DNA of 55,624 bases, taken from positions 1 through 55,624 of IMG/VR virus record IMGVR_UViG_3300049456_000112. The stretch is one strand, 5' to 3'. A program made the position numbers and the translations under genes. The notes beneath the pieces are model-generated. The model had not been told where the DNA came from. It saw only the letters and a list, made by a program, of their open reading frames with translations, and did not search any database. Positions 17,621 through 43,796 of the stretch are shown here, one piece after another (the stretch's first letter is position 1; each line of letters begins with the position of its first letter). The stretch comes from a virus. Taxonomy: Duplodnaviria > Caudoviricetes.

Positions 17621-17922
17621 CCGAATACTCACAACAAAAAACGGCGCGGCCTTTCTTTTGAGGCTCATTGCATTGCTGTGATAGTCCCAAATTTTACATC
17701 GGCCAAAATAATTTAAGTCAATCACCTAGCAGCATTAACTATAACTAATTGACGTAGTGACGCGGCGTTCGCGAATTTTCCTTCGATTAGTTACATCTCT
17801 TTGATGCGTCTCGTTTAACAAGCAGCTTTGTACCAAATGCACACTATAGGACGCTTGACCCGATTTGCGGTGCGCAGATAGCTATGCATGCGCATCGCGA
17901 TTTCCGAGGTTGTTGAGTTTGA

Positions 17923-21785: not shown

Positions 21786-22081
21786 CGGCAGATCAGGCCA
21801 TCGATCTCCTCGCGCGTGTTGGTGCTGATCCGCACGGATTTAGCGGCACCAAATTCTTTCGCTGTCCGATGTGCTCACATCTGCGGCGAAAAAAAACAAA
21901 CCGCTGCCTGTCGATCCGATCCGAAGCCTCCGAATTTTTCTTCCGTTGTTTTCACTGCGACTTCAAAGGGAGCTATCGCTATGACGCTGTCCGTCGCAAC
22001 GATCGAGTTTTTCGAGCGCCGAGGCATCTCGCCGGATTTGATCAGTCGATTCGAGATATATACGGGCGCCCGCGACGCTAA
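21782..22081 (+). CDS. Stand-alone primase zinc-binding domain
   Basis: CPMCSHLRRKK..RCLS.......CFHCDFKG. Confidence 0.75.
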   Translation: MTADQAIDLLARVGADPHGFSGTKFFRCPMCSHLRRKKTNRCLSIRSEASEFFFRCFHCDFKGSYRYDAVRRNDRVFRAPRHLAGFDQSIRDIYGRPRR

Positions 22082-23456
22082 CGGAACCGTGGTCGCGAAC
22101 GCGCGCGGCCGGGTGATCGTGTTTCCGTTTGTCGAGCATGGCAATATCGTGAACGAAAAATATCGCGGCCCACAGAAATCGTTCTGGCATCGCAAGGGCG
22201 GCAAGCGAACATTCTGGAATGTTGATGCTCTCGACGATCCGGCGCTCGAAACCGGACTTCAGCCCTTGGTGATCACCGAGGGCATTGAGGATGCGCTCTC
22301 GGCGATCGAATGCGGATATCCATTGACTGTGTCGGTCCCTGACGGGGCGCCGCCGGAAAGCGCGGAGCCATTGCCAGTGCTAAACCCGGAAGCCGAGAAG
22401 AGCGGCAAGTTTGAGTTCATGTGGCACAACCGCGATCGACTCCGGCGCGTGCGACGCTTCATCATTGCAACCGATAGCGACGGTCCGGGACAACGGCTCG
22501 CGGCCGAGATGGTGCGCCGGCTTGCCGCCGGCCGATGCCAGTTTGTGACTTATCCGGACGGCTGCAAGGATTTGAATGATGTCCTCGTACAATACGGACG
22601 CGATGCCGTCATCGCCGTGCTCCGCGATGCCAAGCCCTACCCCGTGCGGGGGCTGTACCGGCTCTCGGAATATCCCTCGCTTGCGCCAATCGAGCCGGTG
22701 TCGGTTGGTTGGTCACTCTTTGACGGCGAATGCGATGGCAACGGTTGGATGAAGTTGTTTGCGGGTGAGTTTGTGGTCGTCACCGGCGTTCCGAGTCACG
22801 GCAAATCCACCTGGACGCTCAATCTGCTTTACAACCTCGCGCGAGATCATGGCTGGCGATCGGCGATCTTTTCGCCGGAGATGCCGACCGTACCGTTCCT
22901 GCGTGACAAGCTGCGCCGGATCATCGGGGTGGTCGAAGATGAGCCCGACGAATTTATCGAGAGGCATTTCGTCTTCATCGATCATGATCCGACCGACAAT
23001 GACGACGACGATGTGACGCTCGAATGGATCATCGACAAGGCACGCGACGCGGTGCTGCGCGACGGCATCAGGGTGCTCGTCATCGATCCCTGGAACGAGG
23101 TCGAGCACGCGCGCCAGCGCGATGAGAGCATGGCCGAATATATCGGCCGCGCCATCCGCATGCTTAAGCGTTTTGCCCGGCAATATGAGGTCGTGGTGAT
23201 TGTGCTCGCGCACCCGACGAAGGATGTATTCGATCGGGGCAACCTGCGAAAGCCGACGCTCTATGACATCGATGGATCGGCGCACTGGTTTAACAAGCCA
23301 GACCACGGCATCGTCATCTGGCGTGATCCGGTCGCGAGCGAGGCCATCATTTCGATTTCGAAAGTGAGGTTTGAGCAGACAGGTTATCGCGGCGATATCA
23401 GGATGCGCTTCAGCGCGATGTCACAACGATTCATGTCGCTTGATCCGGGGCCGTAA
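21981..23456 (+). CDS. TOPRIM primase / SF4 helicase (T7 gp4/Twinkle-like)
   Basis: ITEGIEDALS, SVPDGA, IATDSDGPG, CKDLND; Walker A TGVPSHGKS, VIDPWN, LAHPTK, YDIDGSAHW; GGGAG SD before ATG 21981. Confidence 0.92.
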   Translation: MTLSVATIEFFERRGISPDLISRFEIYTGARDANGTVVANARGRVIVFPFVEHGNIVNEKYRGPQKSFWHRKGGKRTFWNVDALDDPALETGLQPLVITEGIEDALSAIECGYPLTVSVPDGAPPESAEPLPVLNPEAEKSGKFEFMWHNRDRLRRVRRFIIATDSDGPGQRLAAEMVRRLAAGRCQFVTYPDGCKDLNDVLVQYGRDAVIAVLRDAKPYPVRGLYRLSEYPSLAPIEPVSVGWSLFDGECDGNGWMKLFAGEFVVVTGVPSHGKSTWTLNLLYNLARDHGWRSAIFSPEMPTVPFLRDKLRRIIGVVEDEPDEFIERHFVFIDHDPTDNDDDDVTLEWIIDKARDAVLRDGIRVLVIDPWNEVEHARQRDESMAEYIGRAIRMLKRFARQYEVVVIVLAHPTKDVFDRGNLRKPTLYDIDGSAHWFNKPDHGIVIWRDPVASEAIISISKVRFEQTGYRGDIRMRFSAMSQRFMSLDPGP

Positions 23457-23900: not shown

Positions 23901-24467
23901 TTAGGCCGCCATCAACCGGGCTTTGGCCTCCGAGACGCCAACGGCTCTCAGAACGAATAGGATGGCCGCCGATGCGTCAAAATTTGACCCGTCGGATAGC
24001 GCGTGGATGCCGTAAATCGCGCCCAGCGCCGCGCTGGCGGCCTGCAGACGTGCCTTTGGCGCGAGAGGCGCCGCCGCGTTGATCATGGCGCCCATTTCCT
24101 TGCGCATTGGCGCGAAGTGTCCGGGCGAGGCAAACCGGAATTGCGCCAAGTTGGCAGAGCCAAGACGGCCATAGAATACCACGATAGCGGCGGTTAGCCT
24201 TTCGAGCGGGTCGCCATCTTCGGCCACGGCGCGAACGGCCGCGAGGTCGCCGGCCAAAAGATCGGCGACAACCGCCGCGCGCAGCTCGGCCATGTCCGGG
24301 AAATATTGGTAGAGCAATCCCTTCGATACATCGGCCCGCGCGGCAATCGTATTGACGGAGAGCGCCTCAATGCCGTCGCGCGAGATGACATCGATCGACG
24401 ACGCAATGAAGAGCGCGCGCCGGGCAGAGAGCCCCGCGACGACCTTGGCAGTTTTGCGATAGACCAT
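23901..24467 (-). CDS. TetR/AcrR family regulator
   Basis: GIEALSVNTIAARADVSKGLLYQYFPD. Confidence 0.9.
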   Translation of the reverse strand: MVYRKTAKVVAGLSARRALFIASSIDVISRDGIEALSVNTIAARADVSKGLLYQYFPDMAELRAAVVADLLAGDLAAVRAVAEDGDPLERLTAAIVVFYGRLGSANLAQFRFASPGHFAPMRKEMGAMINAAAPLAPKARLQAASAALGAIYGIHALSDGSNFDASAAILFVLRAVGVSEAKARLMAA

Positions 24468-24469
24468 GA

Positions 24470-24658
24470 TCAATCCCCCAGGTTCCGATACGGATAGCCG
24501 CACCGATCATAATATTGCTGCGCGAGGTCGCGTTCATCTGACCCGCGCGAGCCGGGCAGGGCGCACAGGTCGCGGATGAAAGACGAGAGCACCTCGCGCG
24601 GCGAGATGCCGTCATCCTCGCATTTGGCCAAAAATTCGGGCGGAAGCTGAATATTCAT
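24470..24658 (-). CDS. Hypothetical protein
   Basis: LPPEFL..C......P.EVL..FI.DLC....GSDER.LA..YYDRCGY. Confidence 0.65.
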   Translation of the reverse strand: MNIQLPPEFLAKCEDDGISPREVLSSFIRDLCALPGSRGSDERDLAQQYYDRCGYPYRNLGD

Positions 24659-24855
24659 TGCAATGTCTCCACGCGCGACGGCGCAATATTGCGTTCGATC
24701 ATCAAGAGCAGCAATTTCGCAACCGGCCCCGGGATGGAGCCGGAGGCGGCATAACGTTGCGAGGTCGCCTTTGAGATGCCGAGGACCAACGGCGCCGATC
24801 CCGCGATATTGAGGCCTAGCAATTTAAGCGCGGCCCGGTATTGTTGATTCGTCAT
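24655..24855 (-). CDS. Small HTH protein
   Basis: MTNQQYRAALKLLGL.......LGISKATSQRYA...IPGPVAKLL. Confidence 0.75.
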   Translation of the reverse strand: MTNQQYRAALKLLGLNIAGSAPLVLGISKATSQRYAASGSIPGPVAKLLLLMIERNIAPSRVETLQ

Positions 24856-24949
24856 TGCGATGGCCTCTTGCGTGGTAAAACCCTTTCCCGCGTGAGCGGG
24901 CGCGTGGTGATAGGCCGGGAGGTCGCCAAACTTCCCGGCCGCCTTGTTT

Positions 24950-25153
24950 TCAGTCATTCGATAGCCAATGCTGAACCCGACAACCCGGATTCATGTTGCG
25001 CATTGCGGCGATCACGAGCGGCAACGGCGCGGCCGTTGCGAACGCGGTCGGAACAGTGGCGGTATTAAACGCGTCGATAATTTCCGTGACGTGCGGGCCC
25101 TGATAGGTGGCAAGCCAACAATCCCGGCCCAGGTGTATCAAAATACGGTTCAT
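24950..25153 (-). CDS. Hypothetical protein
   Basis: SD GAGAGGG; preceded by AUGGC hairpin. Confidence 0.65.
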   Translation of the reverse strand: MNRILIHLGRDCWLATYQGPHVTEIIDAFNTATVPTAFATAAPLPLVIAAMRNMNPGCRVQHWLSND

Positions 25154-25169
25154 GGTCCCTCTCTATCTC

Positions 25170-25192
25170 GCGCGATGGGCCATCCATCGCGC
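25170..25192 (-). promoter_or_regulatory. AUGGC-pentaloop hairpin upstream of SD
   Basis: Minus strand GCGCGATGG-ATGGC-CCATCGCGC. Confidence 0.7.
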
Positions 25193-25245
25193 CGGCAATG
25201 TCGCCGTTCATGTCCCGCGCGAGTCGGGACATGCGCCGCGACATG

Positions 25246-25584
25246 TCATCGAATCTTTTCGATCTTGCGGATTGAAGTATAGCGCTTTGCGGCCGGGTCG
25301 CCTCCGCGCGAACGGCGATTGTGCAATTCCAAATGACAGGGTCGCCAGCCGGTTGACTTACCGACAATGAAGCGGCGCGCGGCTGATTGCCCTTCCTCAT
25401 CGGAGTAGCAATCGATAACCTCAACGCGCCAGCCTTCAAGCCCCGTCAACATCGGGCATAGGCCGCTATTATCCCGCAATTTGTCCTTTATCGTCGCGGG
25501 AAGATACATCCATGTTTCCCATGTCATGCCGTCAAGCGTTTCCGGCGGAACAACCGGTGCAACCGGTGGATTGTGCCAAGCCAT
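25246..25584 (-). CDS. Hypothetical phage protein
   Basis: Start ATG 25584; LTGLEGWRVEV...RRFIVGKSTGWRPCHLE. Confidence 0.7.
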   Translation of the reverse strand: MAWHNPPVAPVVPPETLDGMTWETWMYLPATIKDKLRDNSGLCPMLTGLEGWRVEVIDCYSDEEGQSAARRFIVGKSTGWRPCHLELHNRRSRGGDPAAKRYTSIRKIEKIR

Positions 25585-25601
25585 TGTGAACCCTCTCAAT
25601 C

Positions 25602-25668
25602 GAGGCCCCGCCATGGGGCCTTCTGACGCCTTAAGGCGGGTAAGGGTTGCCCCTGCCCGCCATAAAGC
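25602..25668 (-). promoter_or_regulatory. Structured leader motif, copy a
   Basis: GCTTTAT-GGCGGG-C-AGGG-GCAA-CCCT-TA-CCCGCC-TTAAGGC ... GGCCCC-ATGGC-GGGGCC. Confidence 0.8.
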
Positions 25669-25685
25669 CCGAATGATGCCCGATC

Positions 25686-26021
25686 CTATCGGATCACGCC
25701 AAAGAGCCTGCAAACCCGCGCGCGGGACGCTCCGGAAAGCGTCTTTGGGAAGTGCAAAGAGCGCGACTCGGTAATGCCCGTCTGCAGGTTCTCGCGCGTG
25801 CAATCGTTCCACTTGTCGAAAGTGAGCGACGACGCGTCGCGCGCCCTGCAATCTGCCTCGCAGAACCCGCCCCATTCGGGCCGGCTGTATTCGAGGCCAA
25901 GGCGCATTGCATCGCGCAAGCTGGCGTTCTCGATAACGAAACCGCGCTCGTCTGCCTCGCAAACTTCGTCGCCTTCGTCATGCGGAAAATATCGTTCGAA
26001 CGTGACGGAAAAGCCTTTCAT
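25686..26021 (-). CDS. Hypothetical protein
   Basis: Start ATG 26021 after GAAAGGGA. Confidence 0.65.
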   Translation of the reverse strand: MKGFSVTFERYFPHDEGDEVCEADERGFVIENASLRDAMRLGLEYSRPEWGGFCEADCRARDASSLTFDKWNDCTRENLQTGITESRSLHFPKTLSGASRARVCRLFGVIR

Positions 26022-26042
26022 CGCCGTATCCCTTTCGTGTTG

Positions 26043-26059
26043 CTGATGGCCATCATCAG
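26043..26059 (-). promoter_or_regulatory. AUGGC-pentaloop hairpin upstream of SD
   Basis: CTGATG-ATGGC-CATCAG. Confidence 0.7.
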
Positions 26060-26104
26060 GCACCGCCCTACGGTGCGACCGGGGCTTGCCCCGGTTTCGG
26101 CCTC

Positions 26105-26767
26105 TCAATCCTCCCGAACAAGCGAAGGGGTATCGGTCGCGAATTGAAGGAAATAATCGCCCCAATCAACATCGCACAGCTTGCCATCTCCGAACACCCG
26201 CACGACAACGCCACGGCGACGGGCGCAATCGGCGCGACCGGCTTCTGTCGTGCTGGTAAAGTCGCAAAAGGACTCGGTGTATCGAACGCGATTACCGAGA
26301 CTTAGGCCCGACTCGGGCTTGGCAGTGACGGCATCAACGAACGCCTTGCGGGCTTCCGGGAGGCCGATAGCGAGCGGGTCGCCTTTCGTGCGGTTGCCGT
26401 CATAGGCAAGCTTTGCGGCGACCCACGCCTTGAGCACTTTTTGGCCGGCTTCCGGGACGCCTTCGCCGTATGTGTCCAGAAAGGCCTGAGCCTCTTGCCC
26501 ATCGCAATATTCGGACAGGCCCGTCCAATTGACATGTCCGTTATCGTCAAGGAACATTGCGCCACCGAAACGGGCATATGTTGACGCCTTGGGCTTGTTC
26601 CAGACATGGCCGCGCTTTGGGTTGGTCGTCTGACTCACAAACCGGAAGCCGCGCTTGGGCGAGTATTCGAGCCAATATCGAATCTTGCACCGCAAGGTGT
26701 ATCCATAGGGATAATCGTCAATGAGGTAGGCCGACTCTGGCGAGATATGCCCTTTCAGGATTTGCAT
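26105..26767 (-). CDS. Hypothetical phage protein
   Basis: GHISPESAY..DDYPYGY.LRCKIRYWLE...QTTNPK...WNKPKASTY; start ATG 26767. Confidence 0.75.
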   Translation of the reverse strand: MQILKGHISPESAYLIDDYPYGYTLRCKIRYWLEYSPKRGFRFVSQTTNPKRGHVWNKPKASTYARFGGAMFLDDNGHVNWTGLSEYCDGQEAQAFLDTYGEGVPEAGQKVLKAWVAAKLAYDGNRTKGDPLAIGLPEARKAFVDAVTAKPESGLSLGNRVRYTESFCDFTSTTEAGRADCARRRGVVVRVFGDGKLCDVDWGDYFLQFATDTPSLVRED

Positions 26768-26785
26768 GTTCTGGTCCCTTTCCGC

Positions 26786-26847
26786 GAGGCACGCCATGTG
26801 CCTCTACTGCCTTAAGGCGCGTAGGGTTTCCCCGCGCGCCGTAAAGC
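26786..26847 (-). promoter_or_regulatory. Structured leader motif, copy b
   Basis: GCTTTAC-GGCGCG-C-GGG-GAAA-CCC-TA-CGCGCC-TTAAGGC ... GAGGCAC-ATGGC-GTGCCTC. Confidence 0.8.
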
Positions 26848-26863
26848 CCCGATGTGAGTCGTC

Positions 26864-27277
26864 CTATGCGGCCTTGCACCATGCCACGTTTTCGAGCGCG
26901 CCGCGCTTGGCGACCATAAGCGCCGCATAGGTCTTGTCCGCGCGCTCCTGATCGGCTCCCGTCCAGTCTCCCGGAGCTGTTGCCATGGCGCGATTGGCCG
27001 CAGCAACGGCCTTCAAAATGGCCGCGCCGGTTTGGTGAAACGTGCCACTGGCGCAATTGGGCTTGCCGACAGGGACCGCCGCGCGCCGCAATTCGCCCTT
27101 CTGCTTTTCGCGGATTGCCGCGAGTACGGCATTTCCATATCCACGGCGCGTCATGAGCGAAAACTCGGCAAACCCGGTCTTGTCCGCAAGCTTGCGGAAA
27201 TTGAGGACGTCTTTGCCAAGTGTCACGGGATATTCCGGGCCGAATGCTTCCGGCGCTTCTTTTGGTTCATGTGTCAT
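26864..27277 (-). CDS. Hypothetical protein
   Basis: Start ATG 27277 after GAAAGGGA. Confidence 0.65.
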   Translation of the reverse strand: MTHEPKEAPEAFGPEYPVTLGKDVLNFRKLADKTGFAEFSLMTRRGYGNAVLAAIREKQKGELRRAAVPVGKPNCASGTFHQTGAAILKAVAAANRAMATAPGDWTGADQERADKTYAALMVAKRGALENVAWCKAA

Positions 27278-27296
27278 GTGTCGGTCCCTTTCTGCA

Positions 27297-27359
27297 AAGC
27301 CCGCCATAGGCTTCTAACGGCTCAAACCGGGTAACCTTTCGGTGCCCGGTAAAAGCCGC
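27297..27359 (-). promoter_or_regulatory. Structured leader motif, copy c
   Basis: GCGGCTTTT-ACCGGG-C-ACC-GAAA-GGT-TA-CCCGGT-TTGAGCCG ... AAGCCT-ATGGC-GGGCTT. Confidence 0.8.
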
Positions 27360-27371
27360 ATATTGGCGCGG

Positions 27372-27590
27372 TCAGATGTGAACGAACACGCAATCGGGAT
27401 GGACGGAGCGCAGTTCTTGGGCGTGGCGCTGCACGTCACTGATATCGACGCTTTCGCCGTGCACTTCGTATGTTGCCACGTGCAGACGCTGCAAATCGTG
27501 GTCCGGCAATTGAAACCAGCGCAACGGCCCGGTGGGCGCGACTCGGTCCCACACCGAGTCATTTCTGTAAACTTGGATAAAGCTTTTCAT
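27372..27590 (-). CDS. Hypothetical protein
   Basis: MKSFIQVYRND...; GGGAG SD. Confidence 0.55.
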   Translation of the reverse strand: MKSFIQVYRNDSVWDRVAPTGPLRWFQLPDHDLQRLHVATYEVHGESVDISDVQRHAQELRSVHPDCVFVHI

Positions 27591-27606
27591 GTTCCCGTTC
27601 TCCCTG

Positions 27607-27843
27607 TTAGGCAATGCGCGGCATGTCGCCATATTTGCGGTCCGGCCCGCCCTTGATCGTGCGGGACACGTTGCCGTACCGGTCCAGCTCCTGAACGTCG
27701 CAACCCATGGCGAGAACGTTCAAGAGAACCCATCGGGGCAAGGTCTTGGTGTTCGCAATGTTGGCAATGCCCTTCGCGGCCTCGTTTGCGGGATAGGCCT
27801 TGTCCTCTCCGAACACGCTCCGGATTTGGATTTGGATAATCAT
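27607..27843 (-). CDS. Hypothetical phage protein
   Basis: IRSVFGEDKAYPANEAAK.IA.IANTKTL. Confidence 0.7.
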   Translation of the reverse strand: MIIQIQIRSVFGEDKAYPANEAAKGIANIANTKTLPRWVLLNVLAMGCDVQELDRYGNVSRTIKGGPDRKYGDMPRIA

Positions 27844-27858
27844 GTTGCCCTCTCATCC

Positions 27859-27920
27859 GGCCCGCCATGGGCCTCCACGCCCTTAAGCCGGGTAACCTTT
27901 CGGTGCCCGGCCCAAGTGCG
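27859..27920 (-). promoter_or_regulatory. Structured leader motif, copy d
   Basis: GCACTTGG-GCCGGG-C-ACC-GAAA-GGT-TA-CCCGGC-TTAAGGGC ... GGCCC-ATGGC-GGGCC. Confidence 0.8.
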
Positions 27921-27931
27921 ATGTTGATGGT

Positions 27932-28804
27932 CTATGCGGCCTTGATCTGGGCCATACGTTCGGCGAGAACCCACAGGGCCTTATTCAATTTGACATCCTG
28001 ATCAATCCCGTTGACGGCGCGGGTCGTAACCCGGCGCGGGCGGTTTCCCGGGATGCGATTAATGCCCGTCAACCCGCCGCGAATGACGTTTTCCTGCACG
28101 ACGTTAAACGTGGTCCAAAGGTCGTTTGCGGTATCGTCATGGCGACGGGGCGAGAGCAACTGCCGTGGCGTAATCGGAGTCGCCACGTCCCCCGCCGCAT
28201 CGCCGAAACGAAGCACATGTGCGGCCTCTGCGAAAATTTCGCGTTCCTCCCGGGCAAGCTGTTTCTGTGCCCAATCCTGTGGCGCGGCCAAGGTCTTTTG
28301 GGCCTCGCCGAGAACGCGGTATGTCCCCTCGATAACCTTGTGCGTCACCTCGCCGCTGTGCCGCACCTTGACGCTGTCCAAGGTGCTGGTCTGGGAAACG
28401 AGCGAATTCATGCAGGCAATGCGAAAGAGCCCGGCCATAAGATCGTATGCGGAGGTTCCGTCATTTGCATTCTTGAGGAGCATTTCGCAGACGGTATCAC
28501 CAACGCGGTAGGATTCGACGTTATCGAGGCGACGAAGGCGAATCAGATGCTTCGTGAAATCGCCGCGCCCTTCGGCCCTTGCAACGCTCTGCTTAACACC
28601 AACCGGATGAAAGCCCTCTTTTGCGAGCGCGCGGAGGACCTCTATCGTCGGGATGGCGCGGAAGCGCTCCGACCGGGATTCGTGCGGCACCATGGCGAAG
28701 ATTGACGGCGCCTCACGGCGCATTTCGTCTTCGGTCAATGCCCGGGCAACATCGAAGCGAGCGGACTTGGCGTAAACGGTGCCGTTGCGGAAGTGAGCGT
28801 TCAT
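27932..28804 (-). CDS. DUF932/DUF945 domain protein
   Basis: APSIFA..PHESRSERF..IPT.EVL..L..EGF.P, FTKHLIRLRR, NANDGTSAY.L.AGLFR..C.N, DLWTTFNVVQEN, GIDQDVKLNKALW.LAE. Confidence 0.9.
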   Translation of the reverse strand: MNAHFRNGTVYAKSARFDVARALTEDEMRREAPSIFAMVPHESRSERFRAIPTIEVLRALAKEGFHPVGVKQSVARAEGRGDFTKHLIRLRRLDNVESYRVGDTVCEMLLKNANDGTSAYDLMAGLFRIACMNSLVSQTSTLDSVKVRHSGEVTHKVIEGTYRVLGEAQKTLAAPQDWAQKQLAREEREIFAEAAHVLRFGDAAGDVATPITPRQLLSPRRHDDTANDLWTTFNVVQENVIRGGLTGINRIPGNRPRRVTTRAVNGIDQDVKLNKALWVLAERMAQIKAA

Positions 28805-28822
28805 TTGTGTTTCCCTTTCGAT

Positions 28823-28885
28823 TGCGGGGCCATCCCGCACGCCCTTAAGCCCGGTAGCGGTTTCCCGCGCCGGGCGTAATGGCAT
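28823..28885 (-). promoter_or_regulatory. Structured leader motif, copy e
   Basis: ATGCCATTAC-GCCCGG-C-GCGG-GAAA-CCGC-TA-CCGGGC-TTAAGGGCG-TGCGGG-ATGGC-CCCGCA. Confidence 0.8.
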
Positions 28886-28895
28886 GTCGAGAGGG

Positions 28896-29201
28896 CTATC
28901 CGACAGGGCGGGATTGATCGCCCGACATTTCGCACGAGACAATGCGGAACACGGCAATGCCCTTGTGGTTCAATTCGGCGACCTTGGCCCGGGTTAGCTT
29001 TTCCGCCATGCGAGCGCGTTCCATGGCGCGGCGGCATGCAATCTCGGTATCCATGGCGAAAAGCCGCGTGTGAAAATCGCAACCGTTGGCGATACGTCGC
29101 ACGGTTACCTCAAAGGCAATCGGCCTTGTTCGCCGCGCTGGCATCAGGCTTGCGCCGTTGCGGTAAGCTTCGACGGTGGCGAAGTGCAATCGGTTGGTCA
29201 T
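28896..29201 (-). CDS. Hypothetical protein
   Basis: Start ATG 29201 after GAAAGGGA. Confidence 0.6.
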   Translation of the reverse strand: MTNRLHFATVEAYRNGASLMPARRTRPIAFEVTVRRIANGCDFHTRLFAMDTEIACRRAMERARMAEKLTRAKVAELNHKGIAVFRIVSCEMSGDQSRPVG

Positions 29202-29215
29202 GTCTTGTCCCTTTC

Positions 29216-29232
29216 GGCGAGGCCATCTCGCC
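29216..29232 (-). promoter_or_regulatory. AUGGC-pentaloop hairpin upstream of SD
   Basis: GGCGAG-ATGGC-CTCGCC. Confidence 0.7.
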
Positions 29233-29420
29233 TTCAATACTGGTACATCAATTTGAGGCAGAAGAAAAGAGAAATCGTCAACACGAGATGGGATTTTGTG
29301 CTGAAAGATTAATCAAAGCTTGCCCCCGATATCGTCGGAAAGGCCATGTCATGGCCGAAAGAGGCCTGAAACATCGTTCAACTCTTGAGAATGACAGAGG
29401 GGGCTGATATCCAGGAGGAC

Positions 29421-29930
29421 ATGCCAGCGCTCGACAATCCCCGCCACGAACGCTTTGCCCGGGCATTCATGAAATGCGGCCGCGCAAGCGAGGCCTTCCG
29501 TAAGGCAGGGTACAAGAGCGACAAGCCGCGATGCGTCTGGACCGCGTCGTCAAGGCTGTTGAGGCATGTTCGCGTCAAAGCCCGGATCGGGGAGCTAAAG
29601 CGGCAAATGGCCAGTAGAAACCGCATTACGGTGGATAGTCTGCTGGACGATCTGCAGGCTGACAGGGCGCTCGCAAGGGAGCTTGGACAGACTGCAGCGG
29701 CCATTCAGGCCACGCAGCTATCGGCCAAGCTGGTAGGCCTTTTGGTCGACCGGAAGGAAACGGGCAACCCGGGAGACTTCGCAAGCCTGCAGACGCGCGA
29801 CGAGGTTCTGCAGGTGCTCATGACGGAGCTAGGCGAGGATGCCGCGCGGCTGCTCTCTGCGGCACTGTCGGGCGCTCTGCCCGGGCCAATCATCGACGCG
29901 ACGCGCAACCCGGACGACACGCTTAACTGA
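29421..29930 (+). CDS. terS: Terminase small subunit
   Basis: MPALDNPRHERFAR.......SEAFRKAGY.......ASSRLL....VKARIGEL; SD AGGAGG. Confidence 0.8.
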   Translation: MPALDNPRHERFARAFMKCGRASEAFRKAGYKSDKPRCVWTASSRLLRHVRVKARIGELKRQMASRNRITVDSLLDDLQADRALARELGQTAAAIQATQLSAKLVGLLVDRKETGNPGDFASLQTRDEVLQVLMTELGEDAARLLSAALSGALPGPIIDATRNPDDTLN

Positions 29931-30159
29931 CGCTACCAGGGCGCGATTGCAGTGCACAATAGCTGATCTGTCCCGGTATCTTGAGAAAGCGGAACAGCGC
30001 GCCGCTTCCGCCTGTGACATCAATGGCTTAGGCGCCGCGCCGCCGCACTGGAAGGGGAGCCGTCCCCCGGGGTAGGGGCCGCTAATGGCCGGCGCGCGGA
30101 CATAATTGGGAATCCCCCACTCCCCCCTCTCTTTCCCATTTTCTATAATTTTCATTTCG

Positions 30160-30601
30160 GATGGGACCCGTTTCCAGTTTTGGGTCCCATCATCTTACCC
30201 GCTTCTTCCGCCTTTTCCTTTTTTTGGCCTTGCGCAGCCGCCTGCAGCAATCGGCACATTTGAGCCCGTCCTTTGTCCAGGTACCAGCCGGTGTCATGGG
30301 CTTGCCACAGGAGGGGCAGTTTGGGTTAAGCCAGGGCATTTTCTTCCCCATATTTTTCATAATTTTCCACGGGCGCATCTACCCTTCGGGTCCCATCCGC
30401 GCCTATGCTTCCTCTTGCGGTACCCTCCGCATCCAGCCCCGGCGCCGCTTCTGCCTCTCATCTTTACGTGCCGGTGAGGGTGAGCCGGCGGTGACGTCGG
30501 TTTGCCGCCGGGGCTGTTTCCGCATCTTTCCGCCATTTTCCCTTTTGGGGTCCCATCTGTGGCGGTATATGGTTCCGATTCTGGCACAGAAGGGACCCAT
30601 C
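30160..30601. repeat. Five copies of GGG(T/A)CCCATC
   Basis: 30160-69 (inverted), 30182-91, 30388-97, 30548-57, 30592-601. Confidence 0.7.
30190..30378 (-). CDS. Small Zn-finger protein with basic tail (uncertain)
   Basis: CPSCGKPM...CADCCRR followed by KAKKRKRRKKR. Confidence 0.4.
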   Translation of the reverse strand: MRPWKIMKNMGKKMPWLNPNCPSCGKPMTPAGTWTKDGLKCADCCRRLRKAKKRKRRKKRVR

Positions 30602-30602
30602 C

Positions 30603-33600
30603 ATGATCTCGATCGAAATGCCCCGCGCCATCGGCGCCGACGTCCGCCGGTTCGGGCGGCGGATCAGGGCGGCGCTCGTTTCCATCATCATCGCCACGGC
30701 GGTCACCATTCTTGTCTTCGTCGCGCTCGTCATCGGCTTCGCTTTCCCATGAGAAGCGGCCTGTCCGACAATCCCAGATACTTCATCTGCACCAAGGAGA
30801 CGCCCTGGCCCAAGGGCGGGCCGGTGCCGGTCATCCATCCCGATGCGATCGAGGGCGAGCAGCATGACGGTTGGCCCTCCGGGGACTATGTCGACATGCG
30901 ATGCCCGCACTGCCTCCATAGTTGGGAGAAGGAGCTGCCGCAGTGATCAAGATGGCGCAGCCCCCGGTTGATACCAGAAAATAAACACCGTCCCGACTTC
31001 CCATTGCGGTAAAAATCGGCTTAAATCCCGCCGTTTTCTTGAGTCTAATATTTGGATGGGGGATCACCCATGCTGCTTTCGGCCATTGCCATCGCCTGCA
31101 TTTTCTTTTTCTTTTGGCTCCGTGCCATGCTCATCGCGCTGCGCGCGAGCGAGATCATCGACGCGCAGCGCCGCCTCCTGGAGGAGCAGCTTGCCGTCCT
31201 TTCCCGCGATCAGGATTTGCGCAACGCCATGATCAGGCGCCGGTGATGCGCATCGCCATTTGTCCTCGCCGCCATGGCGCTCTTCTTCTCGCTCTTCATT
31301 TTGGCGCCCTCGATCATGATCCCGACATGACAAACCGCATCAAAATCTTCACCGTCGCGAACGTCCCGGAAGAGCTGCAGCAGGAGTGGCTGCAACATCT
31401 CCGAAATTTCGACACGGCCCATCCCAACTGCCATTTTGAGGTCGGCATCGACGGCCCCGACATCCCGATGCGGGAGATGATCGATCGCATCCGGCTTTCT
31501 CCCGGGCTTACCTTCGAACAGATTTGGGAGCGGACGAAATGGGAGAGGCCGCAATGACCCCGCGCTTTCTGTTTCGCGCCGGTCTCGTCCTCTTGGCGCT
31601 CAACCTGCTCGGCATTGTCTTTGTGCTTTGCCTTGCGCTTTGGGAGCTGCCGCGATGAGGCGCGCGGTGGGGAGCCAATCCATGAGCCTATTTTCCATCC
31701 TGCTGGCCCCGATCCACCTCCGGGCTTGGACGTGGCGTTCTATTTCGATCCCGATCCATTGCGTTGGATTTGCCTTCCTGTTGGTCAGCCTCGCGTTTGT
31801 TACGCTTGCTTCGTGGATCGATGGGCGGGCGCCGGCCCCCGTTGACGACGATTGAGGTTTGGGCATGAGCGATCTCTGGCTTATCTACTCCAACGAACAC
31901 CGCGCGTGGTGGGGACCCGGCCGCCATGGCTACACGATAGAGACCGAGCGCGCCGGCAGGTATTCTTTCGCCGAGGCCATGGGCATCTGTCTGCAGGCCA
32001 ATGTCGTGCCGCGCGATCCGCCGAACGAGGTCATGGTCCTGGCGCCAATGCCGACCATTGGGCTGACCGACGAGGAGATCATGGCGGCCCTCCGCGCCGC
32101 CGGTGCCCTGGAGCCGCCGAAATCGTTCCGTGACATGACCGAAGAGGAGATCATGGCCGCCGCGCTCTCCGATCCGGACAACTTGCCGCTCACCGAGGAG
32201 GAGCTGCGCCGTTTGAGGCCGAGGAAGCCGCGATGAGCAATGACATGATCGACGCGCTCATGCTCGCCAATCGGGTTTTGCTCGTCTGCGTCATTGCCCT
32301 TCTTATCGTTGTCGCCATCAGGAGGTTGTCATGACCCATCTCGATTGGGCGCTCGTCGGGGTCCTTCTCTTCCTCGCGCTCGAATTGCTGACATGACCGA
32401 GGTCCAAAAGCTCAAAGCGGAGATTGTGGTCCTGCGCGATCTTCTTGAAACCGCCTATCGAGAGGTCGACAAGGCGCGGGCCGAAAGCGAGAAGGCCGAT
32501 GACGAGTGCATAGAATTAAAGCATGAAATGCTGCGACTGCGCGCGCTGGGGACGCGCGACGGAGAGGATTTGGTTTGGCATTGGAAGCGCAAATACGAAG
32601 CTCTCGCGAATGCCGTCAGCAACTGACGAACTCAGATCGCAAATGGCCAGTTACTTCGGCGGCTCCGGCATCGACGATGGGCCGCCCTATCGTTACCTGA
32701 CCCATCTTGGCTGGACGGAGCGGGCGGGAATGCTGATCGCCCCGAAGCGGGAGATCGCGCAAAAGGAATGGGATTGCGTCGGCTTCCTTTGCGACGAATG
32801 GGACTACGGTTACGATCCGGCCCTTTCCCAGATGCAGACAATGCTGGCCCAGATCACAGCGCCTCACTTCGTTGCCGGGATCGTTCTCGATGATGGCACT
32901 GTGACCACGGCGGCACCGATCGTCAAATACATGATCGGCTGGAATCGAGACCGCGTAAGAGATTATTGCCATCAAAAGGCGTGGCACATTAGAATTATTC
33001 AGCAGGTAAAGCAGGAGGGTTGAATGGATACTTTCAACAAGTTTGGGGTTTGCGTTACCGGCGGCGGCATCGCGATTTTGATGCCTCCAAAAAACGAGAT
33101 TTCCAAAGAAGATGCCTTGATGTTTGCAGCATGGCTGGTCGCCCTTGCTGGCGGGGAAATGGAGTTTAGAAAGGCTCTGAACGCCGTTGAGGCAACCTAG
33201 TTTCTTTTATCATCACACTCGGATCAGCAGAGAAAGTCATGCAGCACGATAGTCACGTGTGGGCATGGCTAGCGGTGAAGTATTTTTACACCGGGTATTG
33301 GCCTTGGCATCACAAAACCGTTGAACCTTCCCGACCCGACGCGTACCAATAAACATTGGATATCGGAACGGGAGATTCGGGATGCAGAACGAGCCACAGA
33401 GGATTCAGGCGCTCGCCGACAAGATACGGGCGCTCCTTAACGCCGAGGAACGGCCGATCGCCATAAGCGCGCTCGCCGTCCTGAGCGGCGAAGTTCTCGG
33501 CAGCATCAGCATCGCGCCGCCCTATACGCGCGCCGCCTCGCTGCAGCTCTTCTGCCAGCAGGTTTCCGACATCACGGCAGCGGTTGAGGATCGGTCCCGA

Positions 33601-33603
33601 TGA
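30603..33603 (+). other. Run of about 12 tightly coupled small hypothetical ORFs
   Basis: Examples: 30603-30752, 30749-30946, 31070-31246, 31327-31557, 31865-32236, 32393-32626, 32610-33023, 33024-33200, 33382-33603; many ATGA overlaps, several single-TM. Confidence 0.6.
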
Positions 33604-34262
33604 TCAAAGCGGTCGCATACATGAGGACGTCGTCCGGCGCCAACGTCGGCGAGGGGAAAGATAGCGAGCCGAGGCAGCGCGCCGCGATCGTTGGCTTCGC
33701 CGATGAGGCCGGATACGAGATCGATGAGAGCGATTTCTATTACGACAAGGTCGTTCGCGGCGCGGATGCGATCACGGATCGGCCGGGCTTCGCCGAAATG
33801 TTGGCCCGGATCGCGGCCAATGGCGTCCGCGTCATCATTGTTGAGAGCCCCGATCGCTTCGCGCGCGATCTCCTGATCCAGCTAACTGGCCACGATCATC
33901 TCAAAAAGCTCGGGATCACGCTGATCCCTGCATCGGCACCGGATTTCTTCACCGAGGAGACACCAACCGCCGTCCTGGTCCGGCAGGTGCTCGGCGCGAT
34001 TGCGCAGTTTGAGAAGGCAACCCTCGTTGCGAAGCTCCGCGCCGCCAGGGAACGCAAGAAGCAGGGTGGGGCGAAGTGCGAGGGGCGGAAGAGCATCGCA
34101 GAGAAGAGGCCGGAGGTGGTTCGGGATGCCATAGCGGTAGCAGATGGCGGGGCGAGCCTTCGGCATGTCTCAGCAGTCCTCGCGACGTTGGGCCATCTGA
34201 CCCCGAACGGGAAGCCCTATTCACCATCCGCAGTCCGGCGTATGCTTTCATCCGGAGATTAA
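33600..34262 (+). CDS. Small serine recombinase (resolvase family)
   Basis: AVAYMRTSS, SEPRQRAAI, DRPGF..ML, IVESPDRFARDL, AQFEK..LV.KL..AR, C-terminal HTH. Confidence 0.93.
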   Translation: MIKAVAYMRTSSGANVGEGKDSEPRQRAAIVGFADEAGYEIDESDFYYDKVVRGADAITDRPGFAEMLARIAANGVRVIIVESPDRFARDLLIQLTGHDHLKKLGITLIPASAPDFFTEETPTAVLVRQVLGAIAQFEKATLVAKLRAARERKKQGGAKCEGRKSIAEKRPEVVRDAIAVADGGASLRHVSAVLATLGHLTPNGKPYSPSAVRRMLSSGD

Positions 34263-35126: not shown

Positions 35127-35285
35127 GATCTCTATGGGGCCGATGCTGCAGAAGACAGATACTTCTCCCCGCCAATGGGGAGGTAGCTCAACGGGTAGAG
35201 CGCCGGATTTCCAAATCCGGAGATGAGGGTTCGAATCCCTTCTCAAAGCTTCTGTCTCCGACACTTGCTCGGCCCCATAGAGATC
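35127..35285 (+). ncRNA. Y RNA-like unit 4 with permuted tRNA-Trp-like domain
   Basis: 17-bp perfect closing stem GATCTCTATGGGGCCGA/TCGGCCCCATAGAGATC; TCTCCCC-GCCA-AT-GGGGAGG, D arm, CCGGA-TTTCCAAA-TCCGG, T arm GAGGG-TTCGAAT-CCCTT. Confidence 0.85.
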
Positions 35286-35325
35286 ACGGCAGGCGACATC
35301 GCGGCAGAAACAACGGAGATGCCCG

Positions 35326-36642: not shown

Positions 36643-37301
36643 TCCGCTTCATCGGCGATGTGCATGGGAAGTTCGGCAGGTACAAAACGTTGCTTGCCGA
36701 CTCTCCCTTCCCGACCATCCAGGTCGGCGATATGGGCGTTGGCTTCCGGAAATGGCCGCACGGCGAGTGGAGCGCCAACCCGCCCTATGACCAGATGAAG
36801 GCCGGCGGCCACCGCTTCATTCGTGGCAACCACGACAATCCCGAGGTCTGCGCGATGCACTCGCAATGGATACCGGATGGCACCGTCGAGGGCGACATGA
36901 TGTTCATCGGCGGCGCGCTCTCGATCGACCGCGCCTATCGATACGAGGACTTCTCCTGGTGGCCGGATGAGGAACTGTCGCAGCAGCGCCTCGATGCGCT
37001 CGTCCATGAGTTTGCGATCGTAAGGCCCAAGATCATGGTGACTCACGAATGTCCGGAGAGCATCGCGGAGATGATCGTTGGTGACATCACCGATCTACGC
37101 GATGGCAAGAAGATGAAGATGGACCCGCGCCATGCTTCACGGACCCGGGTTGCGTTCCAGACGATGTTCGAGGCGCATCAGCCCAAGCTCTGGATATTCG
37201 GGCATTGGCATGTGCCGTTCGGCAGTGTCATAAATGGGACACGCTTCATCTGCCTGCCGGAACTCGCCCATATGGACATCGATCCGGAGCATTTGCCTTG
37301 A
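36639..37301 (+). CDS. Calcineurin-like metallophosphoesterase
   Basis: IGDVHG, QVGDMG, IRGNHD, GGALSID, VTHECP, FGHWH; ATGA overlap with rsr. Confidence 0.92.
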   Translation: MIRFIGDVHGKFGRYKTLLADSPFPTIQVGDMGVGFRKWPHGEWSANPPYDQMKAGGHRFIRGNHDNPEVCAMHSQWIPDGTVEGDMMFIGGALSIDRAYRYEDFSWWPDEELSQQRLDALVHEFAIVRPKIMVTHECPESIAEMIVGDITDLRDGKKMKMDPRHASRTRVAFQTMFEAHQPKLWIFGHWHVPFGSVINGTRFICLPELAHMDIDPEHLP

Positions 37302-37326
37302 CATTTCCCGTGTTAATACGGGAAAT
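37298..37326 (+). promoter_or_regulatory. TTGACA overlapping a 9-bp inverted repeat
   Basis: TTGACA at 37298; ATTTCCCGT-GTTAAT-ACGGGAAAT at 37303-37326. Confidence 0.45.
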
Positions 37327-37360
37327 ACAACCTCCCGCTGCCGAAAGAGAGGTGATTCGA

Positions 37361-43792: not shown

Positions 43793-43796
<4 letters not shown>
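42933..43796 (-). CDS. pseB: UDP-GlcNAc 4,6-dehydratase (PseB/FlaA1-like)
   Basis: ITGGSGAFG, LRFFIGDVRD, IHAAALK, YNP.E..KTNIDGA.NV, LSSDKA..P...YG.SK, VRYGNV..STGSVVP. Confidence 0.88.

Follow-up and report, generated by a model that had tools for sequence, protein, structure and literature searches.

A covarying two-hairpin element in the intergenic gaps of uncultured temperate soil phages

Introduction

Why should one phage gene array carry five copies of the same folded sequence, each wedged between a different pair of genes? The question arises from IMG/VR record IMGVR_UViG_3300049456_000112, analysed here at its full length of 55,624 nt (hereafter, the window). A first-pass annotation had noted five structured leader motifs on its minus strand and listed RNase III-type processing or stabilisation, antitermination or protein binding, and cassette shuffling as possible roles. 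Here we describe the element, its distribution and its flanking genes, and weigh the explanations for it.

Results

Position and anatomy of the element

All five copies lie on the minus strand where the first-pass annotation had placed them, and each has a bulged C, a facing UA, a 3-4 bp stem (P2) and a GAAA or GCAA loop. The array and its elements are as follows.

25246..29201, minus: eight-gene co-directional array (28896-29201, 27932-28804, 27607-27843, 27372-27590, 26864-27277, 26105-26767, 25686-26021, 25246-25584), with Pfam matches for DUF932 only
27932..28804, minus: DUF932 gene, 290 aa (PF06067, E 1.8e-37; phrog_12094), with copies 1 and 2 on either side
28881-28802, minus: copy 1, 73.7 bits, separating the 101-aa gene (28896-29201) from the DUF932 gene; hairpin 1 at 28880-28844 (P1 28875-28870 with 28854-28849; bulged C 28869; UA 28856-28855), hairpin 2 at 28839-28823 (AUGGC loop), ATG 28804-28802
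27917-27841, minus: copy 2, 85.6 bits, separating the DUF932 gene from the 78-aa gene; hairpin 1 at 27916-27882 (P1 27911-27906 with 27892-27887; C 27905; UA 27894-27893), hairpin 2 at 27873-27859, ATG 27843-27841
27356-27275, minus: copy 3, 83.4 bits, separating the 72-aa gene (27372-27590) from the 137-aa gene; hairpin 1 at 27355-27321 (P1 27350-27345 with 27331-27326; C 27344; UA 27333-27332), hairpin 2 at 27314-27296, ATG 27277-27275
26846-26765, minus: copy 4, 93.7 bits, separating the 137-aa gene from the 220-aa gene; hairpin 1 at 26845-26811 (P1 26840-26835 with 26821-26816; C 26834; UA 26823-26822), hairpin 2 at 26804-26786, ATG 26767-26765
25667-25582, minus: copy 5, 66.2 bits, separating the 111-aa gene (25686-26021) from the 112-aa gene; hairpin 1 at 25666-25630 (P1 25661-25656 with 25640-25635; C 25655; UA 25642-25641), hairpin 2 at 25621-25603, ATG 25584-25582
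29199..29269, minus: degenerate copy in the first-gene leader of the array, 13.7 bits, E 0.19
26019..26104, minus: variant junction, separating the 220-aa gene from the 111-aa gene, fold z = -2.69, 10.6 bits, matching the 3' half of the model only

Reading 5' to 3', a C-rich tract follows the stop codon and leads into hairpin 1; a conserved linker then joins this to hairpin 2, beyond which lie a Shine-Dalgarno site and the ATG. Hairpin 1 (14-16 bp, about 15; roughly -20 kcal/mol or stronger) consists of P0, a 6-bp P1 (GCCCGG, GCCGGG, ACCGGG, GGCGCG or GGCGGG in the window), the bulged C facing UA, and P2 with a GNRA loop, after which comes UU(A/G)AG. The first-pass annotation had recorded this last stretch but missed its pairing with a conserved 5' YUUAY, which makes P0 a covarying helix. 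It had likewise overlooked hairpin 2, a covarying stem present in all five copies with an AUGGC pentaloop that is invariant within the window phage, as well as the extension to the Shine-Dalgarno site and ATG and the fixed start after the stop codon: window copies begin 14-18 nt past the upstream stop, and each fills the stop-to-start gap (about 95-115 nt) entirely. The description 'leader before five genes' is accurate in that the element abuts the downstream start, but too narrow for a complete intercistronic module that is also tied to the upstream stop.

A full-model scan of both strands of the 55.6-kb window returned the five copies at 66-94 bits, the next best matches scoring 13.7 and 10.6 bits. 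Five of the seven array junctions have the full element, one has the variant and one (27607/27590, 16 nt) has nothing. The element is modular: the first-gene leader, where hairpin 1 has decayed, still has a linker-like stretch, hairpin 2 (29232-29216, AUGGC loop), a Shine-Dalgarno site and its start codon (ATG, 29201-29199), and at the variant junction two different G+C-rich hairpins replace hairpin 1 upstream of hairpin 2 (26059-26043, AUGGC loop), a Shine-Dalgarno site and the ATG (26021-26019).

A selected fold on the sense strand

The claim that selection acts on a folded single strand was upheld by strong covariation, in the window copies as well as in the wider set of 52 distinct copies. 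In the five window copies, 92.4% of pair cells are paired compared with 76.7% in shuffles, and both sides have changed in 9 of 19 pairs, values reached by none of 500 shuffles; shifting the partner by one column lowers pairing to 49-65%. Across the 52 copies, 93.7% of pair cells are paired (73.5% in shuffles) and double changes occur in 17 of 19 pairs, again equalled in 0/500 shuffles, with hairpin 1 pairing at 97.8%. RNAalifold independently predicts P0, P1 and P2. The P0 cells include 40 G-U or U-G pairs versus 14 unpaired cells, and since the former would be A-C mismatches on the opposite strand, the element acts on the sense strand.

The position of the element is fixed as well. In 45/52 copies the first model column comes 13-18 nt after the upstream stop codon, ATG or GTG ends 50/52, and 46/52 lead into a complete ORF no shorter than 50 aa, with 2 more reaching the locus end. 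Pairing of the post-stop tract with the Shine-Dalgarno region, a test of translational coupling, was negative.

Distribution and relation to known families

Built on nothing but the five window copies, a covariance model matched 18 of 19 pattern-selected viral loci at E <= 1.1e-5, including copies with a P1 unlike the search pattern. Confirmed copies occur on 35 IMG/VR contigs and in 42 of 80 metagenome loci, at 1-5 per contig; nothing in the deposited phage and plasmid collections was a real match. The carriers are a group of uncultured temperate soil phages, tailed phages with terminase and portal genes and with serine recombinases. The window portal has a relative in one of the five motif-bearing records, and the window primase-helicase in none (0/5).

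The first-pass view that this is not a named motif was confirmed, in that Rfam 15 returned nothing at gathering score. The only weaker hit was RF03006, the M23 RNA motif (22.6 bits, E 0.72, gathering score 41.2), a poor alignment that covers hairpin 2 and the Shine-Dalgarno site of copy 1. M23 RNAs are described as located upstream of M23 peptidase genes (PMC5737381). We rejected membership on the sub-threshold score and the match of just one of five copies, and the element appears to belong to no RNA family described in Rfam 15.

Flanking genes and cassette exchange

Among 89 flanking proteins compared with Pfam, six matched ArdC, two ArdA and one DUF932, three others accounted for all remaining Pfam matches, and 77 matched none. 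The flanking genes are mostly unrelated ORFans, and no Pfam families recur other than ArdC, ArdA and DUF932. Where two loci resemble each other, the likeness is often confined to the motif; in L164 versus L176 the motif is 93% identical and the genes on both its sides have been replaced. The suggested role as a cassette-shuffling point, while unproven, is indirectly supported by these unrelated flanks and motif-limited similarity. Enrichment of similarity breakpoints at the element is modest (34 of 538 ends versus 19.0 expected, 1.8-fold), the expectation including no baseline for ordinary intergenic regions.

Discussion

Our data suggest, tentatively and at somewhat less than even probability, that the element works in cis, as an RNA, to punctuate a polycistronic early message: it would direct processing, stabilise the products and supply each gene with a standard leader, and it would also act as a homology patch where cassettes can be exchanged. 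The whole array would be transcribed as a single mRNA from a promoter upstream of the first gene. Ribosomes that terminate at the upstream stop would not quite reach hairpin 1, which would therefore stay folded. We infer that a host endonuclease cuts within or beside the element, most likely in the conserved unpaired linker between the hairpins; the upstream cistron would then keep a 3' hairpin as a barrier to exonucleases, and the downstream cistron would receive a standard leader of short tail, hairpin 2, strong Shine-Dalgarno site and ATG. The same self-contained unit would thereby express each gene irrespective of its neighbours. A side effect would be that the roughly 100 nt conserved at each junction provide patches of homology for gene exchange. 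The element is not a general operon punctuation system, because single-copy records exist (G002, G003, G004).

The RNase III-type processing or stabilising role proposed earlier is compatible with the predicted anatomy. The RNase III sites of T7 are irregular internal-loop hairpins between early genes, one of which is anti-restriction, and cut the polycistronic mRNA into stable units ending in a 3' hairpin. The present element resembles them in its internal-loop hairpins repeated between genes, a likeness of predicted layout, to which it adds a second hairpin and a ribosome-binding site. However, classical RNase III substrates span roughly two helical turns, and hairpin 1, at 14-16 bp, is shorter than these and than the T7 sites, which counts against this reading. 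The RNase E core motif RN-WUU, in the form given in PMC5222698, occurs in the linker of 22/52 copies compared with 6.5% of background 11-mers, but is missing from 30/52, including all five window copies. In the puf operon of an alphaproteobacterium, segmental mRNA stability is described as being set by RNase E sites together with stabilising structures (PMC6238624). The plastid IEE, a short intercistronic sequence, is reported to enable the processing of a polycistronic transcript into monocistronic mRNAs that are stable and translatable (Zhou et al. 2007, PMC2230500), the function that we propose here; organism and machinery differ, and the likeness is one of function, not of structure or sequence.

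The conserved bulges (C opposite UA) and near-invariant P1 point to recognition by a host factor rather than a phage protein. A mere stabiliser needs neither, which also weighs against the preferred reading; both features would equally well suit a protein that binds specifically for some other purpose, for instance repression or antitermination.

Alternatively, the element may be a regulatory RNA bound by protein or by RNA polymerase, either a nut/put-type antitermination site or a translational-repressor operator, with contacts at hairpin 1 and its bulges and at the hairpin 2 loop, which is phage-specific. The internal loop is near invariant (C 52/52, U 48/52, A 50/52), as is the sequence of P1, while P2 covaries freely, as is typical of a specific binding site; the AUGGC loop sits on seven different stems in the window and is mostly AUCCC or AUUCC in other phages, suggesting a phage- or host-matched factor; and two hairpins with a conserved single-stranded stretch resemble put and nut sites. 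Nevertheless, we consider this alternative unlikely. Antitermination needs one site per transcript, whereas up to five copies follow one another within 3.3 kb and no terminators separate them. The P2 tetraloop is mostly GNRA but is UUCG in L285, and because UUCG is tolerated the loop is not a boxB-like contact; it is probably a generic stabiliser. Furthermore, no protein family is common to all five motif-bearing records (three of them complete), and predicted folds leave the Shine-Dalgarno site unoccluded.

More doubtful again is a transcriptional cassette like the PeSLs of T4-like phages, in which hairpin 1 would terminate or attenuate transcription, the conserved linear sequence would hold the next gene's promoter, and every gene would form its own transcription unit. 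PeSLs are described as combining a strong sigma-70-like promoter, an AT-rich upstream region and a terminating stem-loop (PMC2839356, PMC4122927). As described there, they share with the present element a stable stem-loop, a terminal Shine-Dalgarno site and start codon, repetition in consecutive gaps between small ORFans of a plastic genome region, and flanking genes that differ between related phages; the roughly 20 contiguous conserved bases that span the 3' strand of P1 and the linker could likewise suit a promoter. The present element nonetheless differs in its two hairpins, conserved bulges and heavy covariation, in lacking a promoter or terminator consensus, and in its carriers, which are temperate soil phages with serine recombinases rather than T4-like myoviruses. 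Between positions 24000 and 32000, no complete sigma-70-like hexamer pair falls within any copy, none of 12 terminator-like sites does (0 within a copy), and no T-run follows hairpin 1. One promoter-like site overlaps a copy, but since it straddles the Shine-Dalgarno region of copy 5 (-35-like, 25599-25594) and the downstream coding sequence (-10-like), it is not a feature of the shared element. Hairpin 2 varies by more than 20 nt in length, so no fixed spacing from the linker to downstream sequence is possible. A single-subunit RNA polymerase was found neither in the five records (the control of that search was silent) nor among the eight largest ORFs scanned from three complete genomes. The array's first gene appears to have its own promoter-like region, separate from the element: the divergent intergenic region 29202-29384 contains the first-gene leader and a -35-like hexamer (29282-29277). 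The element is thus, as far as its sequence indicates, neither a classical promoter nor a classical terminator.

It is improbable that the element works as folded DNA, whether as an attC-like recombination site of mobile cassettes or as an Frpo-like single-strand promoter or priming site. P1 and P2 consist almost exclusively of Watson-Crick pairs and could therefore fold on either strand, but the 40 G-U cells of P0 pair on the coding strand only; attC sites recombine via the bottom strand. Consecutive intergenic copies between mutually unrelated, co-oriented ORFs do form the attC pattern, and the genes beside a conserved copy differ between related loci. The DUF1874 motif, described as having this pattern and as indistinguishable by sequence between folded ssDNA and RNA (Weinberg et al. 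2017, PMC5737381), also has, by that description, bulged bases and a structure better conserved than its sequence. The present element is not of the DUF1874 family, because it has no Rfam match, and it differs from both in its coding-strand P0 and its fusion to translation signals, the Shine-Dalgarno site and start codon standing at conserved spacing within it. Moreover, neither an integron-type integrase nor any tyrosine recombinase was found in any of five records, with a control search positive in 14/14 genomes. In plasmids, ArdA and ArdC genes, here among the flanking genes, are described behind structured ssDNA promoters, the Frpo hairpins, which rebuild -35, -10 and UP elements in their stems and act on transferred ssDNA (Samuel et al. 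2024, PMC11541004). Several structured elements upstream of ORFs, on one strand of anti-restriction-rich arrays, recall the Frpo/ssi elements described there, but the present stems are short, G+C-rich and without -35 or -10 boxes, and the carriers, having terminase and portal genes, enter as double-stranded DNA.

Least of all, and very improbably, the element may be an autonomous processing RNA (either a new ribozyme that cleaves itself, or a minihelix that resembles tRNA and is cut by RNase P): small ribozymes often occur in phage accessory regions such as these intercistronic sites, about ten unpaired nucleotides of the internal loop and linker are near invariant, and P0 and P1 stack over about 12 positions followed by GCCA (16/52) or GGCA (36/52), but no Rfam ribozyme or tRNA-like model matched at E <= 1, fold predictions gave two simple hairpins with no conserved pseudoknot or multi-helix junction, and the linker differs among the window's own copies.

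Returning to an intercistronic RNA that punctuates early mRNA, several of the genes beside the element are anti-restriction genes, and the element probably sets the expression of the genes in these arrays and marks the points at which they are swapped.

Structure and setting of the element

As the first-pass annotation noted, the window carries five minus-strand copies of a motif with a 6-bp stem, a bulged C opposite UA, a 3-4 bp stem, a GAAA or GCAA loop and UU(A/G)AG, and all five have exactly this form. Its further claim, that pairing has been selected despite differing stem sequences, is borne out by the proportion of pair cells that are paired (92.4% versus 76.7% in shuffles) and by both-side changes in 9 of 19 pairs, a level reached by 0/500 shuffles. 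The UU(A/G)AG sequence does extend the helix as described; more precisely, its partner is YUUAY 5' of the stem, with which it makes a further helix, P0. P0, the 6-bp stem (P1) and the loop-bearing stem (P2) together constitute hairpin 1. Whole-leader alignment and folding place a ~10-nt spacer (the linker) and then a second hairpin 3' of hairpin 1; in the window, the stem of hairpin 2 is different in every copy and the pentaloop is always AUGGC. The 3' end of the element is an A/G-rich Shine-Dalgarno site followed by ATG.

The copies lie in an eight-gene, co-directional, minus-strand array running from 29201 down to 25246, delimited by codon-position G+C, with a plus-strand gene (29385-29930) as its divergent neighbor. 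Among the seven junctions of the array, five hold the full element, one holds a variant in which folding places two other hairpins where hairpin 1 would be, and one is a bare 16-nt gap. DUF932 (27932-28804) is the only Pfam family among the array genes. Ahead of the first gene, the interval 29202-29384 holds a -35-like hexamer, and from its sequence we infer that this interval is the array promoter region.

A covariance model built from the five window copies alone (R1), run over the whole window on both strands with filters off, scored these copies at 66-94 bits, and every other match reached at most 13.7 bits. The next two matches were the leaders of genes 28896-29201 and 25686-26021, which keep the AUGGC hairpin and Shine-Dalgarno site and in which hairpin 1 is not intact. 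Because the promoter-proximal leader of the first array gene retains only the stretch from the linker onward, the data fit an element divisible into two halves: a 3' half that would be a standard leader and a 5' half (hairpin 1) that would be needed only between cistrons.

In three of the five window copies, the AUG of the hairpin-2 loop shares its frame with the annotated start 30 nt downstream and no stop intervenes, as read from the sequence:

26797, minus strand, loop AUG in frame with the annotated start at 26767
27307, minus strand, loop AUG in frame with the annotated start at 27277
25614, minus strand, loop AUG in frame with the annotated start at 25584

This arrangement is probably due to chance, since the loops of other phages have no AUG.

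The window, a linear IMG/VR virus record of 55,624 bases with a CheckV completeness of 53% and a G+C content of ~60%, has a single sequencing run listed for its DNA, labelled soil metagenome. Pfam matches include the following:

48592-50559, large terminase
50588-53245, SU10-type portal
21816-23456, primase-helicase
10470-12194, large serine recombinase, integrase-type
33600-34262, small resolvase-like serine recombinase

These genes mark it as a tailed, probably temperate phage. The divergent plus-strand gene beside the array matches Terminase_2 (small subunit; E 8.3e-11) and lies ~19 kb from the large terminase. A partial tRNA-model match at 35183-35242 (46.8 bits, model positions 7-64) precedes a Ro60-like gene with TROVE and VWA domains (35326-36642), 3' of which are a metallophosphoesterase gene (36567-37301) and a tRNA-Trp gene (37770-37844), such that 35183-37844 looks like a phage-borne Ro/Y-RNA-type module. 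An unusual cargo adjoins the terminase: on the minus strand, 38245-46746 holds a nonulosonic-acid-type (pseudaminic- or legionaminic-like) sugar-pathway cluster encoding NeuB+SAF, a DegT aminotransferase, a PIG-L deacetylase, an ATP-grasp protein, a PseB-like dehydratase, a cytidylyltransferase-aminotransferase fusion and a GFO/IDH/MocA oxidoreductase. Other genes give a weak GmrSD N-terminal match (14583-15557; 30.4 bits, under the 33.2 cut-off), a PDDEXK DUF3799 protein (16679-17725) and, at the distal end of the minus-strand array, a TetR-family regulator (23901-24503).

Relatives and distribution

A loose pattern scan of viral contigs returned at least 116 stretches, and none was real among the 80 loci listed (the model gave one match, E 0.55). 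A tie of the element to DUF932 was ruled out: the 44 viral loci with relatives of the window DUF932 protein (44-76% identity) gave no model match at E <= 0.1 and none with a second model, and the motif was absent by eye from three upstream regions of such relatives. A tighter pattern yielded 19 viral loci, 18 of which were matched by R1 at E <= 1.1e-5, frequently with several matches in one locus. Because R1 had been built on the window only and its matches include copies whose differing P1 lay outside the reach of the search pattern, the five copies are independently confirmed as part of a real family. A further 17 loci came from a second pattern, which was based on the conserved 3' half, and 15 of these have model-confirmed copies. 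A retrained model, R2, then recovered 56 copies (52 distinct) from 34 of 36 sources. Counting the window, confirmed copies are carried by 35 IMG/VR contigs.

A metagenome scan returned 87 stretches, and 42 of the 80 loci listed carry 59 model matches. No confirmed metagenome copy is on a contig longer than 45.7 kb, and none of eight pattern-matching metagenome contigs longer than 100 kb was model-confirmed. Whole motif-bearing records hold one to five copies: three in G001, one each in G002, G003 and G004, and five, the highest count, in the window. Three copies lie ~300 nt apart on a 1001-base metagenome contig (L332:3-705), a spacing which indicates that cassettes between copies can be as small as ~70 codons.

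Among 185,579 GTDB species genomes, 72 pattern matches included one convincing copy (36.6 bits), the single match in a Bradyrhizobiaceae MAG (L218). Of 151 sampled genomes from the same family, one had a match and the sample added no new copy, in a search of low sensitivity that scored only 31 of ~3000 first-look candidates per genome. The host range is thus probably rhizobial, as judged from the one L218 match. BLAST of the 3.8-kb array against 50,697 deposited phage records gave no match, and a 105-nt motif query gave chance-level matches only (E >= 1); 72,556 plasmids (PLSDB) gave no BLAST match at E <= 1.

Conserved anatomy

Covariation extended to the wider alignment: across the 52 distinct copies, 93.7% of pair cells are paired versus 73.5% in shuffles, and double changes occur in 17 of 19 pairs, with 0/500 shuffles as high. 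Shifting partners by one column reduced pairing to 46-56%. Hairpin 1 is 97.8% paired, with double changes in 11 of its 13 pairs, and RNAalifold also predicted P0, P1 and P2 on an independent MAFFT alignment. P0 contains 40 G-U cells and therefore can form only on the coding strand.

Several features are nearly invariant. P1 is close to fixed as GCCSGG, all 52 copies have the bulged C, and the U and A opposite it are kept in 48 and 50. The linker consensus is G-S-C-A-U-U-A-G-R-R-G, with UAG kept in 47-50 of the 52 copies, and the 5' flank is C-rich, with a CAACAUCG-like stretch of moderate conservation at its end. The P2 tetraloop is GNRA in most copies. Locus L285 (3061-3144) has the sole copy with a UUCG tetraloop, the remainder of the element being intact, and L289 has a longer loop; on these grounds, the tetraloop is probably a stabilizer rather than a contact. 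Most copies have hairpin 2, its stems ranging from 5 to >10 bp, and loops of AUCCC (seven copies), AUUCC (six) or AUGUC (two); AUGGC occurs in the window only.

The element is also fixed in position. An upstream stop codon lies 13-18 nt 5' of model column 1 in 45/52 copies and elsewhere in five, and the remaining two have no upstream open reading frame by our criterion. The model ends on ATG in 47 copies, GTG in three and neither in two. The downstream reading frame is complete and at least 50 aa long in 46 copies, 38 aa in one, off the locus in two and lacking in three.

Neighboring genes and carriers

The proteins flanking 31 copies are mostly singletons in all-against-all BLASTP. In Pfam, 77 of 89 distinct flanking proteins have no match; the others are ArdC (six), ArdA (two), DnaJ zinc-finger region (two), DUF932 (one) and Ros/MucR (one), placing the element among anti-restriction genes (ArdA, ArdC).

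Gene content indicates that the carriers are more than one phage lineage. Relatives of the window portal are present in one of five other records and those of the primase-helicase in none, and no protein family is common to the five records G000-G004, a set with three complete genomes. Two window proteins considered as partners were rejected: the Ro60 (TROVE) protein falls outside all protein families shared with another carrier, and the small serine resolvase is common to G000, G001 and G004 only. Both window serine recombinases have relatives in G001 and G004 and none in G002 or G003.

By BLASTN, the window is dissimilar to every other motif locus, and many pairs among the other loci have similarity confined to the motif. 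For loci L164 and L176, the phages are ~90% identical and the motif is 93% identical, and the genes on both sides do not align. Longer HSPs ended within 40 nt of the motif in 34 of 538 cases versus 19.0 expected, a modest excess which could be a plain gene-boundary effect.

Comparison with known systems

The motif had not been recognized as a named one, and Rfam 15 agrees: gathering thresholds returned only two tRNA-model matches, elsewhere in the window. At E <= 1, the sole match in 24000-31000 was M23 (RF03006), a family whose RNAs sit upstream of M23 peptidase genes (PMC5737381); membership was ruled out by a score of 22.6 bits, below the gathering threshold of 41.2, on one copy only. Searches of the main-text literature offered analogues and no account of the motif; the supplementary motif lists of PMC5737381 could hold a similar unnamed one absent from Rfam. 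As far as the Rfam 15 and literature searches show, the RNA family is undescribed.

In layout and genomic behavior, the closest described system is the PeSL cassette of T4-like phages (PMC2839356, PMC4122927), though the element has a different structure and lacks the promoter that defines PeSL. Both are anchored to the upstream stop (in 45/52 copies of the element) and to the downstream start (ATG/GTG end in 50/52). PeSL cassettes, however, contain a sigma-70-like early promoter (-35 and -10), whereas the element has no conserved promoter: a search of 24000-32000 found one sigma-70-like site, at 25599-25570, and none in the other four copies. That site starts downstream of hairpin 2, overlaps the Shine-Dalgarno/start end of copy 5 (25667-25582) and continues into the downstream coding sequence; a full sigma-70-type hexamer pair is thus held by no copy. 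In PeSL cassettes, the stem-loop terminates or attenuates transcription; in the element, terminator-like sites (a stem followed by a T-run) were found within no copy, though a stable hairpin is present. By these searches, the element is unlikely to be a classical promoter or terminator. PeSL cassettes also mark places where genes have been inserted, deleted or replaced between related phages, a feature on which the L164/L176 comparison and the HSP-end counts above bear.

Integron attC sites have conserved R''/R' core sites and fold on the bottom strand with extrahelical bases. The element's stem base (YUUAY/UURAG) is unlike that core, and P0 pairs on the coding strand only. Integron-type tyrosine recombinases (PF00589) were found in none of five records (three complete), in a search positive in 14/14 control genomes. 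The element shares with attC sites and the DUF1874 motif a pattern of occupying consecutive gaps (PMC5737381), but it lacks an integrase and is strand-bound to mRNA. A single-strand promoter of the Frpo/ssi type, in which the hairpin stem rebuilds -35, -10 and UP elements (PMC11541004), also differs, the element's stems being of GCCSGG type plus 3-5 G+C-rich bp, with no hexamer pair inside them.

A promoter for a phage single-subunit RNA polymerase was rejected, no such polymerase having been found: PF00940 was found in 0/5 records, by a search left unvalidated because the control genomes were likewise silent, and the eight largest reading frames scanned from three complete genomes held no RNA polymerase domain. 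In lambda nut, a boxB hairpin has a GNRA-like loop as its protein contact, and there is one site per early transcript; in the element, the loop is GNRA in most copies, UUCG in L285 and longer in L289, and an array has up to five copies.

The RNase III sites of T7 early mRNA are irregular double-stranded stems that span roughly two helical turns, contain an internal loop and are cut by host RNase III; the 14-16-bp stem of hairpin 1 is interrupted by one mismatch and a 1x2 internal loop. The RNase E core is single-stranded RN-WUU with U at +2 (PMC5222698). RN-WUU occurs in the unpaired linker of 22/52 copies (background, 6.5%) but in 0/5 of those in the window, for which reason no nuclease is named in our proposed mechanism.

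Three further ideas were rejected. Stoperator-type repressor sites occur in mycobacteriophages, but P2 covaries, which is not required of a double-stranded DNA site. Translational coupling through pairing of the post-stop tract with the Shine-Dalgarno site gave no signal (own pairs -5.8 kcal/mol, cross -5.5, shuffled -6.0), and pseudoknots, either between the 5' flank and the loop of hairpin 2 or between the linker and P0's 5' strand, were inconsistent across copies and showed no covariation by eye.

Proposed mechanism and significance

A mechanism has to account for a selected sense-strand fold, anchoring to the stop codon and ribosome-binding site, repetition along an operon, carriers without a common protein, and conserved bulges and linker. 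We tentatively favor an intercistronic expression element acting through host machinery, a reading which covers most of these facts and which we hold to be a little short of probable. Hairpin 1 would stay folded just past the terminating ribosome and, after a cut, would guard the upstream message at its 3' end; the linker would be an accessible segment between two stable hairpins, and hairpin 2 with the Shine-Dalgarno site would provide a uniform leader. The early RNase III sites of T7 act as such intercistronic elements. The plastid IEE is reported to do so too (PMC2230500), and an alphaproteobacterial precedent, segmental mRNA stability arising from RNase E sites plus stabilizing structures, is described in PMC6238624.

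The remaining probability is shared by four alternatives. The first is a binding site for a regulatory protein or a polymerase. In the window phage, seven different stems carry one uniform AUGGC loop, which is outside what the intercistronic element explains and makes the strongest case for an additional specific binder. The second is a promoter-terminator cassette of PeSL type, which shares the anchoring and lacks the conserved promoter. The third is a DNA-level recombination or single-strand promoter element. The fourth is an autonomous ribozyme or RNase P substrate.

A more ambitious proposal is that the element is a dedicated "cassette punctuation" of phage anti-defense genes, a new class of self-processing or host-nuclease-directed RNA that would supply each inserted gene with one and the same expression unit and would also be a specific DNA exchange point between unrelated phages and thus an integrase-free phage counterpart of attC; we consider this unlikely. 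We rate the element as a structured intergenic cassette junction of phage accessory regions, which is a known kind, and its RNA family as new within the scope of our searches.

Phages bear arrays of small genes that change quickly, and many of these genes counter host defenses. To our knowledge, the free swapping of such genes with correct early expression is poorly understood outside T4-like phages. The element is a compact RNA found in soil phages without a universal protein family; it invariably occupies the space between two unrelated genes, and it belongs to a large, clean family with strong covariation. Were it to act as a standard junction for expression and exchange, it would explain how these arrays stay functional during content turnover. 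Such a junction would also offer, via motif neighbors, a sequence handle for new anti-defense genes in metagenomes, and possibly a natural insulator for building multi-gene constructs in rhizobia. If a specific host factor is bound instead, the element would point to an unknown step of early phage gene expression in Alphaproteobacteria.
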